The notes under the pieces: model-generated
The model's input: the letters and a program-made list of their open reading frames with translations, nothing else
What the model was told of the DNA's origin: nothing
Databases searched by the model: none
Assembly: GCA_032249235.1 (NCBI GenBank)
Contig: JAVVGF010000004.1
Span: 32,001 to 96,000, forward strand
From: Thermoproteota archaeon
GTDB lineage: Archaea > Thermoproteota > Thermoprotei > Gearchaeales > Gearchaeaceae
Direction of reading: 5' to 3'
Length of the DNA: 64,000 nucleotides
Made by a program: the position numbers and the translations under genes
Shown: piece by piece, positions 52,195-63,735 of the stretch
Layout of the letters: each line of letters opens with the position of its first letter
Position numbering within the stretch: position 1 is the first letter of the stretch

Positions 52195-52721
52195 AAACCT
52201 TTTATTTTGAAGATTTCAATATTTGGGCTTGCTATGCTTCTTTTAAATTGAAAAATAGAAATCTTAATGAAATTTTCGAATATATTTCTAGAATTAAGTC
52301 AAAAGTTGATATTTTGCAATTGGTAGATGCTGACAAGATTTGTGGTGAGCTACACTTACTCAGCGGTATATATAGAACCTATAGAGCTAAAAAAGAATCA
52401 AAAAATATAGCTAAGGAGAATTCTGTTGAATTGTTGCTCCGTCTTAGCGGTAAAAGACAAATAAATGAAGCAATAAGCATATTAGGATTAAATGAAAAGA
52501 CAAGGAATGTATTGGTTTGTTGTTGTGATCAAGATTTGGATAAAGCAAAATTAGTTACTGAAGAATTAGTTAGTCATCTTTCAGAATTTGAGAACGATGA
52601 TTTCATAAACGTATATGATAAAGTGAAGGAAGAAGAAATTAAGAAAACATTCAATATAAGGACGAACAATATAGAGAAAGAAGTTTTAATGAAAATTTCT
52701 TACATTGAACTATTATCATAA
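52191..52721 (+). CDS. cgi121: KEOPS complex subunit Cgi121
   Basis: Q..DA..I.G..HL, NIA....E.LL.LSG.RQI.EAI...G. Confidence 0.88.
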   Translation: MKTFYFEDFNIWACYASFKLKNRNLNEIFEYISRIKSKVDILQLVDADKICGELHLLSGIYRTYRAKKESKNIAKENSVELLLRLSGKRQINEAISILGLNEKTRNVLVCCCDQDLDKAKLVTEELVSHLSEFENDDFINVYDKVKEEEIKKTFNIRTNNIEKEVLMKISYIELLS

Positions 52722-53260
52722 TCACCTAGCAATTCTTCTATTGCTTTCTTTTTCATTTTATTAAGCACAAATATTTGATCTCTTTTAAGTACAGAAATTC
52801 CTGCAATATCCCTAATTATTTCTATCAAGATCACGTAATCGTAATTAACTAAATCTACTTTTCTTTTAACTTTTGGAGCTATTTGTTCAATTAAAAAGTC
52901 GCTTTTTATGTTTGATTCTCTCTTATCAATGCTTATTCTAAAGCTTTTATTTTCTTCGATCTTATTCAACAAGAGCTCAGCCGATTTAACAATTGTTTCT
53001 TCTTTAGCTTCAGTTATGATTTCAATGGGTATTGCTCTAAGTATGTATTTTATGCTCCATACATTTTCTTTTGAATAATTTATAATTGTTTCAACAGCTT
53101 TGATAGGATCGAAATTAACTTTCAATAATATCAAACCAGGCATTTTAACATCTAAAGGTTCAAAATCTTTAAATCCAAATTTCGATAGCAAAAGCCATGC
53201 TTCATGAACACAGTCATCTTCCCTAAATCTGTAAGTAGTTAATATTATTCCTTTATTCAT
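52700..53260 (-). CDS. Stand-alone THUMP-domain protein
   Basis: ILR.IPI, SFRI...KR, KVDL.N.D.VI.IEI. Confidence 0.85.
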   Translation of the reverse strand: MNKGIILTTYRFREDDCVHEAWLLLSKFGFKDFEPLDVKMPGLILLKVNFDPIKAVETIINYSKENVWSIKYILRAIPIEIITEAKEETIVKSAELLLNKIEENKSFRISIDKRESNIKSDFLIEQIAPKVKRKVDLVNYDYVILIEIIRDIAGISVLKRDQIFVLNKMKKKAIEELLGDYDNSSM

Positions 53261-53585
53261 GATATAAGAAGAGGATTGTGTGCGTATCCTTAAATCTTTT
53301 TATTAAATTCTCCTTTTTCTTCATTCTTAATTTGGTATAAACAAGTCCTCCTTTAACTCTTTTAGATATGAGTTTTATAACCAAATTATCCTTAAGCTTC
53401 TTATTTTTATGAATTTTCTTGAAATTTCTTTCTTCTCCATCCTTTTCCTTAGTCTTGAATAAATAAAATTCTTTTTCATGCTCTAATACAAAAATTAATT
53501 CATCCCATCTTCTTATTAGCGAAAAGAATTCATCCAAAGATTTTTCATCTATCTCATTTAGCCAAATTATTATCATTGCTTGCAC
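53253..53585 (-). CDS. Hypothetical protein
   Basis: 110-aa ORF overlapping the THUMP gene start; no recognised motif. Confidence 0.45.
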   Translation of the reverse strand: MQAMIIIWLNEIDEKSLDEFFSLIRRWDELIFVLEHEKEFYLFKTKEKDGEERNFKKIHKNKKLKDNLVIKLISKRVKGGLVYTKLRMKKKENLIKRFKDTHTILFLYHE

Positions 53586-53641
53586 CTTTCATGGGCTATA
53601 AAACAGCTATCTTTTTAAATAAGTAAGTAGTTATCTCATTC

Positions 53642-53719
53642 ATGGCTGAGGAAGAAGAACTTGAGGAATTTGAGGAGTTCGAAGAATTTGAAGAATTAGA
53701 AGAATTTGAGGAATTTTAA
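53642..53719 (+). CDS. Putative 25-aa acidic (EEF)n microprotein
   Basis: MAEEEELEEFEEFEEFEELEEFEEF*; synonymous codon variation between repeats; TATA at 53612; T tract after the stop. Confidence 0.6.
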   Translation: MAEEEELEEFEEFEEFEELEEFEEF

Positions 53720-53764
53720 TTTTTTCGTTGAATTTTTAAGTAAGTTCCTATATTAAATCTTTAC

Positions 53765-54019
53765 ATGCAATTTTGCCCTAAATGCAATAATTTGATGGTT
53801 CCAAAGAGAGTGAAGAATGGATTTAAACTTGTATGTACTAACTGTGGTTACTCAAAAAGAGTTAAAAAAATTGATATCAAGCTCGTTTCAAAGTCAGCTG
53901 ATAAAAAGAGTAAAGAAATAGCTCTAACTACTCCTGATGAAGTAAAGGCTAGAGAAGAAGAAAAAATGTTGCTTGAAGAATTGTATAAAGATTCGTTAGA
54001 ATACTTTGAAACTGATTAG
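53765..54019 (+). CDS. TFS/RpoM paralogue with only the N-terminal Zn ribbon and an acidic tail
   Basis: FCPKC..LM.P...L.C..CGY; no C-terminal QTR.ADE ribbon. Confidence 0.8.
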   Translation: MQFCPKCNNLMVPKRVKNGFKLVCTNCGYSKRVKKIDIKLVSKSADKKSKEIALTTPDEVKAREEEKMLLEELYKDSLEYFETD

Positions 54020-55812
54020 TGACAGTAAGAATAGCAATAGTAAATCGCGACTATTGCAAATCTGACAAGTGTAATTTCGAGTGCAATAGATTTTGTCCTA
54101 TAGTAAGAGCTGGAAATGAAATAGTTTGGCTTGATGAATCAGGTAAAGCTGTAATAGATGAAGAAGGATGTATAGGTTGTGGTATTTGTGTAGAAAAATG
54201 TCCATTTCATGCAATAGAAATCGTTAATCTTGCAAGTGAGCCAAAAGTTCCTTGTATTCATCAATATGGAGTAAATAGTTTCAGACTTTATGGCTTACCT
54301 TTCATCAGATATGGAAAAGCTTCAGGCGTTATAGGCATGAATGGTGCGGGCAAATCTACAGCTATAAACATACTTGCAGGTAAATTATATCCAAATTTAG
54401 GAAATTTTGATAAAAAGCCTGAACCAGAGGATATAATAAGCAATTTCAGAGGTAGCGAATTGCAACGTTACTTGAAAGACCTTTATGATAAGAAAATAAG
54501 GGTTGCAATTAAGCCACAAGATATACATGAAATACCTCTGGTGCTTAAAGGAAGCGTTAGAGATGTATTGAAATTCATTGAAAATAAAGATATATTTGAG
54601 CATGTAAGCGAGGTTTTTAAATTGAACGAATTTGTCGATAAGAAAATTTCTAATCTAAGTGGGGGAGAACTTCAAAGATTCGCTATTACACTAGCTATTT
54701 CGAGAGATGCTGACGTTTATTTCTTGGACGAGCCTTGCAGCTATTTAGATGTACAGCAAAGACTCAGACTAGCTCGCATATTGGATTTCTTGTTAGAAAG
54801 AAACAAAACTTTGCTTATTGTGGAGCATGATCTATCCCTAATTGATTATTTATGCGATACAATAACCATAATCTACGGTAAACCTAAGGTATATGGTATA
54901 GCTTCTTTGCCTTATTCTACAAATGCAGGAATAAATGCTTATTTTGAAGGATTTTTACCTCATGAAAATGTTAGAATAAGGAAAAATCCCATCAAGTTTT
55001 ATCTAAAAAGTTTAGAAAGGGTTGAATTTTCTCCTTATAAATTCTTGTTCTGGACTAATTTGAAAGTAAATTTATATGATTTTTATCTCGAAGTAGAAGA
55101 AGGCTTTGCAAATAAAGGAGAAGTTTTAGGAATTGTTGGACCTAACGGTATTGGTAAAACTACCTTCGTTAAGACAATTGTGGGAGAGATAAAGGAATAT
55201 GAAGGAAGTGTTTATTCTATAGAAGAAAATCCTAAAATGAGCTATAAGCCCCAAGTTTTCAAGTTCGAAAACGAAGATCTTTTGGTTAAGGATTATTTGT
55301 ATGATATAAACAAGGAATTCTATAAGAATGAATGGATAACCGATGAAATAATTCAACCTTTAAGGATCGATCAAATTTTAGAAAGGAAGATTTCTGAACT
55401 TAGCGGAGGTGAGAGACAAGCTTTAATGATAGCGGCAACACTTTTGAGAGATGCAGATATATACGTTTTTGATGAACCTAGCGCATTTTTAGATGTTGAA
55501 CAAAGATTATCTTTAGCTAAACTTTTGAAAAAATATGCTCAAACATTTAAAAAACTCGTGATCGTCGTAGAGCATGATTTATTAATTCATGATTTCACAG
55601 CAGATTCATTAATAATCTTTAAAGGTGAACCTGCGAAGAAAGGTTATGCACTTAAGCCTATGTCTTTAAAAGAAGGTTTCAATAACTTTTTGAAAGATTT
55701 AGGAATTACCTTTAGAAGAGATAAAAGGACTAATAGACCTAGGATAAATAAGCCTGGCTCTAGTTTAGATAGATATCAAAAAGAAATTGGTGAATATTAC
55801 TATTTAGAATAA
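54019..55812 (+). CDS. ABCE1/Rli1 ribosome recycling ATPase
   Basis: N-terminal 2x[4Fe-4S] Cys motifs, two ABC domains (LSGGE, DEP, VEHD), C-terminal R.NK..S..D. Confidence 0.96.
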   Translation: MTVRIAIVNRDYCKSDKCNFECNRFCPIVRAGNEIVWLDESGKAVIDEEGCIGCGICVEKCPFHAIEIVNLASEPKVPCIHQYGVNSFRLYGLPFIRYGKASGVIGMNGAGKSTAINILAGKLYPNLGNFDKKPEPEDIISNFRGSELQRYLKDLYDKKIRVAIKPQDIHEIPLVLKGSVRDVLKFIENKDIFEHVSEVFKLNEFVDKKISNLSGGELQRFAITLAISRDADVYFLDEPCSYLDVQQRLRLARILDFLLERNKTLLIVEHDLSLIDYLCDTITIIYGKPKVYGIASLPYSTNAGINAYFEGFLPHENVRIRKNPIKFYLKSLERVEFSPYKFLFWTNLKVNLYDFYLEVEEGFANKGEVLGIVGPNGIGKTTFVKTIVGEIKEYEGSVYSIEENPKMSYKPQVFKFENEDLLVKDYLYDINKEFYKNEWITDEIIQPLRIDQILERKISELSGGERQALMIAATLLRDADIYVFDEPSAFLDVEQRLSLAKLLKKYAQTFKKLVIVVEHDLLIHDFTADSLIIFKGEPAKKGYALKPMSLKEGFNNFLKDLGITFRRDKRTNRPRINKPGSSLDRYQKEIGEYYYLE

Positions 55813-63046: not shown

Positions 63047-63428
63047 AGCAAGAATTGCTTTCATCAATTTAGTTCGCGTAGATAAAAAAAGAATTATGAG
63101 CATGGTAATATACAGAGCAGGCTATATTGAGGATGTTGAGTTTCATGAAATAAAGAACGCTCAAGAGCTTCTCCAGAAAATCGTAAATTCAAGGCATTTC
63201 AAACAAATTAGATACGTAGTAATTAAAGGTAATATTAGCGAAATGTCTGATTCTCTTTTCAACAATTTCCCTTTACCTATTATATACATGAATAAAAAAA
63301 TAAGATTGTACAATTTAACAGAAGAAGAATTCAAAATCATCAATTCAAGGAATTTCTTGAGAGATGGTTTAAATATAAGCAAGATTATCTCTAATCTAAT
63401 TAAGCATTATGATAAGATTTTGCCCTAA
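63024..63428 (+). CDS. Shortened, degenerate DUF99-like protein
   Basis: Position between rpoL and tfs; R.G..E.V, SRH..Q.R.V...G, LP.I resemble DUF99. Confidence 0.5.
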   Translation: MKRFIKLEARIAFINLVRVDKKRIMSMVIYRAGYIEDVEFHEIKNAQELLQKIVNSRHFKQIRYVVIKGNISEMSDSLFNNFPLPIIYMNKKIRLYNLTEEEFKIINSRNFLRDGLNISKIISNLIKHYDKILP

Positions 63429-63735
63429 ATGCGGCAATTTATTAAAGCCTCAGAAAGATAGCAATAAGTTGGTTTGTTTATCATGTGGGTATTATGAATT
63501 AATTCAAAATAAGCTTAGCTTAGCTATAACTACTTCTGTTCAGAAAAAGAAAAAAGAAATCATTATTGATGAAGGTGATAGAGGACATCAAATGCCTACT
63601 GCAGAAGTTACATGCCCTAAATGCGGAAATGAAAAAGCATATTGGTGGTTAGTCCAAACTAGAAGGGCAGATGAGCCTCCTACTACTTTTTATCGTTGCA
63701 CTAAGTGCAATCATACTTGGAGAGATTACAGGTAA
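63409..63735 (+). CDS. tfs: Transcription elongation/cleavage factor TFS
   Basis: Two Zn ribbons; QTRRADEPPT.FY.C..C. Confidence 0.95.
   Translation: MIRFCPKCGNLLKPQKDSNKLVCLSCGYYELIQNKLSLAITTSVQKKKKEIIIDEGDRGHQMPTAEVTCPKCGNEKAYWWLVQTRRADEPPTTFYRCTKCNHTWRDYR

Follow-up and report, generated by a model that had tools for sequence, protein, structure and literature searches.

A window of 64,000 nucleotides (the whole stretch of DNA analyzed here; G000:C4, positions 32,001 to 96,000 of JAVVGF010000004.1) from a 1.43-Mb genome of a Thermoproteota archaeon, 91% complete, contains a 25-codon open reading frame (ORF) that very probably is a real protein-coding gene of a family of glutamate/aromatic micro-proteins. 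This micro-gene lies a short distance upstream of the gene for ABCE1, the ribosome-recycling ATPase, and selection acts on the peptide that it encodes. The explanation that best accounts for the whole, and that we advance tentatively, is that the product would be a trans-acting acidic-aromatic ligand of ABCE1 or of the recycling machinery. In what follows genomes, loci, families and genera carry the labels G, L, f and g, with G000 denoting the genome of the window and f1 its family.

Selection acts on the peptide encoded by the micro-gene

The micro-ORF runs from ATG to TAA at 53642..53719 on the forward strand (25 codons and a stop) and specifies MAEEEELEEFEEFEEFEELEEFEEF, of whose 25 residues 17 are Glu, five are Phe and two are Leu; there is neither Cys nor Trp. 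Its reading frame holds no alternative start further upstream. The initial annotation had described a 25-residue poly-(Glu-Glu-Phe) frame made of six 9-nt units that vary at third positions, and this description was confirmed: the units differ solely at unit positions 3, 6 and 9, each of which is a third codon position. Tandem Repeats Finder placed the repeat that builds the (EEF)n core at 53654..53716 on the same strand (consensus GAAGAATTT, period 9, 7.0 copies, 81% matches), and its score of 77 was the highest among the 55 rows obtained for the window. As a micro-ORF, EEFEEF occurs a single time in the G000 genome; the other match is internal to a 436-aa SRP54-like protein. The G+C content is about 31-35% in the window and about 31% in the genome.

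A 9-nt tandem repeat of perfect period in AT-rich intergenic space, with a repeat number that differs between genera, could be a product of DNA slippage or a promoter-region element that happens to be open. The initial annotation had argued instead for a stand-alone coding gene selected on its peptide, and comparison of G000 with its sister species G001 bore this out. All 25 residues are identical in the two species, although 13 of the 75 nucleotides differ, so that 13 differences are synonymous and 0 are non-synonymous. With transition/transversion ratios from 1 to 4, the probability of 13 random changes all being synonymous is 3e-12 to 5e-9. In the same pair of genomes the adjacent Zn-ribbon gene has 26 non-synonymous differences, and the spacers that flank the micro-ORF are far more diverged. 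A second case came from genus g7, in which a 26-residue core (REEEEWEEEEELWEEFEEEWEEEEEW) is identical in eight species across 20 variable nucleotide columns; summed over all pairs, there are 251 synonymous and 0 non-synonymous differences. Because the nucleotide differences are all synonymous both between G000 and G001 and within genus g7, we conclude that selection acts on the peptide.

Other observations also argue against a non-coding repeat. A check of the family for frameshifted or ATG-less relatives found that the ATG, the open frame and the stop are retained in all seven f1 relatives that hold the micro-ORF. Elsewhere, as in genus g7, non-repetitive DNA encodes the same type of peptide, and Rfam has no match in 53200..54100. 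We therefore consider it extremely improbable that the micro-ORF is not a gene.

The peptide is a Phe/Leu variant of a glutamate/tryptophan family

The pattern EEFEE[L/F]EE was found in eight of the nine f1 genomes; the ninth (G003) is 74% complete and its contig ends inside the neighboring gene. At seven loci (L001-L005, L007 and L009) the orthologous Zn-ribbon gene is immediately preceded by an (EE[F/L])n ORF with 22-28 codons, and in G007 an intact micro-gene lies on the opposite strand, 4.4 kb from the Zn-ribbon gene and ABCE1. The ORFs that occupy this place in f6 and in the sister family f2 are longer (31-64 aa) and contain both Trp and Phe.

A Trp-containing pattern, EEEWEEE, was present in 89 of the 120 genomes of the class (backwards control, 0) and in 221 of the 401 genomes sampled across the phylum (backwards control, 7 hits). 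None of the nine f1 genomes had it, and no f1 member has Trp. When 30 of the EEEWEEE loci of the class were fetched, 25 proved to be short stand-alone acidic ORFs, four belonged to the C-terminal end of a protein about 410 aa long and one was an unrelated 141-aa frame. The longer protein (about 410-424 aa; L077, L082, L091 and L092) ends in ...IQEEEWEEE and is a distinct gene with the same kind of acidic Trp tip. Members of the family are 22-70 aa long and consist of Glu runs punctuated by Trp or Phe, with an aromatic residue or Leu every 3-7 residues and, in many cases, an aromatic residue as the last one. On the basis of sequence, the assignment of the f1 peptide as a Phe/Leu variant of this Glu/Trp micro-protein family is well supported. 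Since the sister family f2 mixes Trp and Phe, we read the lack of Trp as variation rather than as exclusion from the family. Family f1 is the most AT-rich lineage among those that we looked at.

Database searches were of limited use with such peptides. No Pfam or NCBIfam model matches MAEEEELEEFEEFEEFEELEEFEEF, and 16 micro-proteins searched against Pfam at E <= 10 gave no family match besides one chance hit to Rpb2_2 (E 6.2), low complexity limiting the power of this search. A HMMER-type search with a 61-aa member yielded 3506 candidates of which none scored; the composition defeats HMMER, which makes this result uninformative on distribution. An exact look-up in a 15-billion-protein collection found none of ten long family forms. 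The ESM Atlas contains the 55-aa form from L095 letter for letter, and the clusters nearest to this form (scores <= 0.84) are bacterial hypotheticals that offer no functional lead. A literature search outside subscription journals and supplements found no printed description of the family, and the passages of PMC6514570 proved irrelevant. The case shows that gene callers miss conserved genes of under about 30 codons.

The micro-gene recurs beside ABCE1

In the window, 299 nt separate the micro-ORF stop from the ABCE1 start. The two genes lie on one strand and are separated by a single 84-aa gene, which begins after a spacer of 45 nt. The initial annotation had named a truncated TFS and ABCE1 as the neighbors, and both identifications held: the first is a protein that has only a Zn_ribbon_RPB9 domain, and ABCE1 follows it. 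We examined gene order upstream of the TFS-like and ABCE1 genes, as had been proposed, and found that in 20 of 54 class loci (19 of 34, and one of 20 further loci) the micro-ORF is followed by the Zn-ribbon gene and then by ABCE1. The 19 triads come from families f1, f2, f6, f7, f10, f11 and f12 and from genus g39 of f4; the single triad among the further loci is L112, of family f15.

Outside the class we sampled 20 pattern hits from 20 genomes that belong to other families of the phylum. In 13 of these the micro-ORF lies directly upstream of ABCE1 on the same strand, at a distance of 52-135 nt, and no Zn-ribbon gene intervenes (no hit at E <= 1e-4); the remaining seven loci have no ABCE1 within 2.5 kb. 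In addition, four of five genomes of family f33 have an EEDW-type micro-ORF, a spelling that the EEEWEEE pattern misses, just before ABCE1. At one f33 locus, L156 (G216:C1, a complete genome), the ABCE1 match contains a single in-frame TAG, and the 500 nt upstream show no acidic micro-ORF.

All archaea and eukaryotes have ABCE1, and it is essential in them. The recurrence of the micro-gene beside it across many families is the strongest functional clue available. With ABCE1 as the conserved neighbor, this clue directs attention to ribosome recycling rather than to DNA metabolism or the proteasome. The role of nucleic-acid mimic or adaptor suggested by the initial annotation is putative. The initial annotation had also drawn a weak analogy to the core of DSS1/Sem1, and the peptide could be an archaeal orthologue of that protein, which would have a proteasome, PCI-type or OB-fold partner. 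The composition is similar, both being small, acidic, aromatic and disordered. Membership in that family was not borne out, however: none of 16 family members matches PF05160 at E <= 10, in a search whose power low complexity limits, and no proteasome, PCI or OB-fold gene recurs among the neighbors, where the conserved gene is ABCE1. We regard this orthology as highly improbable.

Expression signals and conservation of unlinked copies suggest probable action in trans

A putative TATA-like box, TTTTTAAATA, is located at 53612..53621 (+), and a run of six T residues directly follows the micro-gene stop (53720..53725, +). Both elements had been noted in the initial annotation and are present, with functions that are putative. 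Because TTTTTAAATA begins 30 nt before the ATG, the micro-gene mRNA is predicted to be leaderless or nearly so. The T6 run is a possible archaeal termination signal, for which it is weak evidence in a genome of about 31% GC. A second putative TATA-like box, TTTTTAAGTA, lies in the spacer at 53733..53742 (+), 32 nt before the ATG of the Zn-ribbon gene. These arrangements are shared with relatives. A similar box precedes the micro-gene ATG by about 25-30 nt in the orthologues of L002-L005, and the spacers of L002-L009 have a box comparable to TTTTTAAGTA. Trp-type members have a TATA-like box (TTTATAAAT) before the ATG, as do 20 further loci, mostly from complete genomes and likewise with short ORFs, at about 25-30 nt, and the spacers between Trp-type micro-ORFs and ABCE1 are T-rich too.

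One metatranscriptome contig (run X11, record 9; 432 nt, starting with adapter letters) covers 53656..54065. Starting at codon 5 of the micro-ORF, it takes in the spacer, the Zn-ribbon gene and 47 nt of ABCE1. The RNA evidence comes from this run, and the small shares of matching words in runs X13-X20 were left aside. The region 52600..53625 and most of ABCE1 are without an RNA contig in run X11, a lack of cover that proves nothing.

ABCE1 acts at stop codons, and acidic nascent chains are known to destabilize bacterial ribosomes, as in the case of MgtL. The micro-ORF could be a cis-acting upstream ORF, in which poly-acidic translation (by destabilizing the ribosome or slowing termination) or failed recycling at the stop would set ribosome flow to the Zn-ribbon and ABCE1 cistrons and give ABCE1 feedback on its own synthesis. 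Consistent with such a role, the micro-ORF is on the same strand as these genes and separated from them by short spacers (45 nt here and 52-135 nt elsewhere), the RNA-library contig spans the junction, and the factor encoded downstream is one that works at stop codons. The T tracts and TATA-like boxes within the spacers argue against it. Moreover, copies with their own putative promoter are conserved far from ABCE1, and the relocated copy in G007 is intact, showing no decay on separation. A sensor of acidity alone would also not need invariant Trp/Phe positions. We judge regulation in cis to be an improbable explanation.

The same features lead us to favor action in trans: the micro-genes carry TATA-like boxes of their own, T tracts and second TATA-like boxes sit in the spacers, copies stay conserved when unlinked from ABCE1 (G007 and genera g7, g8 and g18), and the aromatic positions, rather than acidity alone, are frozen within genera. 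In genus g7 (L096 and L104-L110) the unlinked micro-gene is part of a conserved block in which a 190-aa protein and a 61-aa zinc-ribbon protein are both divergent from it. Downstream in this block are a 128-aa S-adenosylmethionine decarboxylase proenzyme-like protein and a 202-aa SIS-like protein, both named by reading the sequence. At other loci of this genus (L044-L048) a protein of more than 500 aa begins with an acidic Phe stretch, FEEEFEEFEEE, and has motifs that by eye resemble those of family-B DNA polymerases.

The Zn-ribbon protein is a candidate second partner

The gene between the micro-gene and ABCE1 (53765..54019, +) encodes an 84-aa protein with only a TFS/RPB9-type N-terminal zinc ribbon (Zn_ribbon_RPB9, E 9.3e-10). 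Its stop overlaps the start of ABCE1 (54019..55812, +; Fer4_RLI and two ABC_tran domains in Pfam), an overlap that holds in family f1. The ribbon and linker are basic (the first 50 residues have a net charge of +12), and the C-terminus is a conserved acidic-aromatic helix (LLEELYKDSLEYFE; EEYYEVFLE-type); the AlphaFold model has a ribbon, a disordered linker and a helix at residues 57-83. It is present in 41 of 41 relatives, and ABCE1 comes next after its gene in 26 of 30 class loci (L001-L030), with a gap of -2 to 52 nt in 21 of the 26. Database names for the family vary among RNA polymerase subunit M, transcription elongation factor and hypothetical protein; the gene order suggests that it may be an ABCE1-linked factor rather than a transcription factor. 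A full-length TFS paralogue, a 111-aa open frame, is found at 63415-63579 (G000:C4:95415-95579), about 9.4 kb downstream of the ribbon-only protein.

We considered the possibility that the peptide is a dedicated partner of this protein, neutralizing or chaperoning its basic ribbon and linker, with ABCE1 merely an operon mate. The micro-gene immediately adjoins the Zn-ribbon gene in 20 of 54 class loci, the strongly basic first 50 residues (net +12) include a disordered linker, and at L154 a zinc ribbon is fused to an acidic Trp tail. Opposing this possibility, no Zn-ribbon gene intervenes at the 13 loci outside the class where a micro-ORF precedes ABCE1, some lineages have a member of the Zn-ribbon family that is not beside the micro-gene, and none of four longer Zn-ribbon homologues inspected carries an acidic Trp extension. 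An exclusive role of this kind appears quite unlikely to us, while the modeled basic ribbon and linker make the Zn-ribbon protein a candidate for a second binding surface.

The fusion at L154 (G349:C9, 2465-2740, -) is a 91-aa open frame in which a CPxC...CPxC zinc ribbon is joined to a long acidic Trp tail; its architecture resembles that of LysW carriers, and L154 is among the seven outside-class loci that have no nearby ABCE1. Fusion of the Zn-ribbon protein itself to an acidic Trp extension was rejected, as the four longest non-TFS homologues inspected were mis-called starts. A read-through fusion of the micro-ORF and the Zn-ribbon gene was likewise rejected, as their frames are not consistently shared.

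Upstream of the micro-gene is a divergent gene for a 110-aa lysine-rich protein (53253..53585, -) that has no Pfam family and may or may not be a partner; THUMP, CGI-121 and NAC genes lie beyond it. A profile of this protein matched nine of nine f1 genomes and none of 111 other class genomes, and its gene is always divergent from the micro-gene, even after the rearrangement in G007. The structural model is confident (predicted local distance difference test, pLDDT, 86.9). With it, Foldseek returned nothing at E <= 0.001, and the best matches in a VIA structure search were YrdC/TsaC-like chains at Z 5.8, below the noise level that the tool states. A role as a basic Cas2-like partner was rejected, as the protein is confined to f1 and no link to Cas2 was seen.

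Proposed function

In the mechanism that we propose, the micro-gene's own TATA box would drive transcription of an mRNA with no leader or almost none. The encoded peptide, whose net charge is about -17, is probably disordered and would act in trans as a multivalent acidic-aromatic ligand of the recycling machinery encoded alongside it. The partner would be ABCE1 and, in this class, perhaps also the basic Zn-ribbon protein encoded between the two genes. The mode of action would resemble that of two ABCE1 ligands, the C-terminal tail of aP1, a stalk protein in archaea, and the N-terminus of eIF3j, a likeness of mechanism and not of descent. That the micro-protein works through ABCE1 or the recycling machinery is a possibility to which we give somewhat less than even weight.

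Several findings weigh against this proposal. Binding of the micro-protein to ABCE1 is inferred, and the genome's own aP1 tail (...EEVSEETISAGLSALFG) is unlike (EEF)n in detail. The micro-gene is away from ABCE1 in 34 of 54 class loci and in 7 of 20 outside the class, and none of five genomes of family f27 has an acidic micro-ORF in the 500 nt before ABCE1. The unlinked copies share no neighbor across lineages, so that the partner could be encoded elsewhere. Because relatives are not independent of one another, fewer independent events underlie the synteny counts than these suggest. From genus to genus the length and the number of repeats drift (22-28 aa in f1), which a role driven by composition would fit equally well. 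Finally, expression rests on one assembled RNA-library contig for which strand, ends and level are not given and DNA carry-over is possible. A complex prediction with ABCE1, the Zn-ribbon protein and the micro-protein, each given its own alignment and with the 25-aa chain as partner, scored 0.00 in two runs in which no controls were folded; the calibration of the tool included no chains of fewer than 30 residues. This result argues neither for nor against binding.

A role driven by composition would be that of a general polyanion, a hyper-acidic shield or buffer without a specific partner, whose place near ABCE1 would reflect nothing more than chance in the history of gene order. It could serve as a heat-stable anti-aggregation agent or bind polyamines, Mg2+ or basic proteins. 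Across the phylum composition does outweigh exact sequence, as spacing, length (22-70 aa) and the choice of aromatic or other residue (W, F, L, Y) vary; many copies are unlinked to ABCE1, and the carriers come from hot-spring metagenomes, by run labels only. Yet the ABCE1-adjacent order recurs in many families, and this is difficult to account for unless the two genes are functionally linked. It is the sequence, and not composition alone, that is frozen within a genus, as the core identical in eight species illustrates, and there is one copy per genome with no sign of high-copy expression. We consider a general polyanion unlikely and retain a ligand of ABCE1 or the recycling machinery as our working proposal.

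A more specific version can be drawn by analogy, and we offer it as a speculation that is rather doubtful in its entirety. The micro-protein, a soluble and multivalent acidic-aromatic ligand, would correspond in free-standing form to the stalk tail and to eIF3j's acidic N-terminus. By docking on ABCE1, at nucleotide-binding domain 1 (NBD1), or on small subunits to which ABCE1 is bound, it would adjust how ribosomes are split and how recycling passes over to initiation, and it would have been inherited together with ABCE1 since the Thermoproteota ancestor. If this were true, a recycling accessory factor 25-70 residues long would have been overlooked in archaea, and it might be a functional forerunner of the eukaryotic eIF3j-ABCE1 contact. 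The micro-protein would then bear on how ABCE1 recruitment and ATPase activity are controlled off the stalk.

A tiny gene that holds its place beside ABCE1 across the phylum would be a concrete candidate accessory factor that is cheap to test. The peptide can be synthesized, and assays for archaeal ABCE1 and the stalk exist (PMC6125642). The Phe-for-Trp swap in an AT-rich lineage is in effect a natural experiment on the role of the aromatic residues. The additions made by the present analysis are the Phe-type variant, the inserted Zn-ribbon gene and the synonymous-substitution tests.

Comparison with known systems

One mechanistic parallel is the aP1 tail (Ribosomal_60s, PF00428), which like the micro-protein has an acidic run ending in hydrophobic or aromatic residues. 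ATPase activation of archaeal ABCE1 requires hydrophobic residues at the C-terminal end of aP1, which bind its NBD1 (PMC6125642). The aP1 tail and the micro-protein are not homologous, the micro-protein having no PF00428 match and lacking the N-terminal dimerization domain and GLxxLFG-type end of P1, and the micro-protein is proposed to be free and multivalent, unlike aP1, which is tethered to the ribosome; its binding to ABCE1 is putative. The true aP1 of the genome is encoded on contig C5 and ends in ...SAGLSALFG.

We know of no recognized eIF3j in archaea. The N-terminal region of eukaryotic eIF3j/Hcr1 can be likened to the micro-protein, being acidic with a conserved Trp. Eukaryotic ABCE1 contacts the eIF3j N-terminus on the small subunit (PMC7780240), and the N-terminal acidic domain of eIF3j holds the conserved Trp (PMC2824034). 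In contrast to the micro-protein, eIF3j is much larger and has further domains, and a sequence relationship is beyond reach for peptides of such low complexity.

DSS1/Sem1 and CSNAP fall into the same size class as the micro-protein and are likewise extremely acidic, with aromatic 'stickers' and expected disorder; within PCI complexes, DSS1 and CSNAP have been described as subunits that are small, disordered and highly acidic (PMC8442969). The micro-protein differs from DSS1/Sem1 in having no profile match, no PCI or proteasome context, and ABCE1 as its neighbor. Leader peptides of the MgtL type are, like the micro-ORF, short acidic ORFs upstream of a gene, whereas the micro-gene has its own putative promoter, T tracts in the spacer and conservation when unlinked from ABCE1. 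The LysW/ArgW carriers are tiny proteins whose acidic C-terminal tail contains Trp and in this respect resemble the family. The micro-protein has no Cys and so no zinc ribbon, in contrast to these carriers, and it has no NCBIfam hit; no lysine or arginine biosynthesis genes were found near the micro-gene.

Within its own family, the f1 peptide differs from the Glu/Trp members in that every Trp is replaced by Phe or Leu and the period is strictly three. The f1 locus differs from the Glu/Trp loci directly before ABCE1 in that the micro-gene and ABCE1 have a TFS-like zinc-ribbon gene inserted between them.

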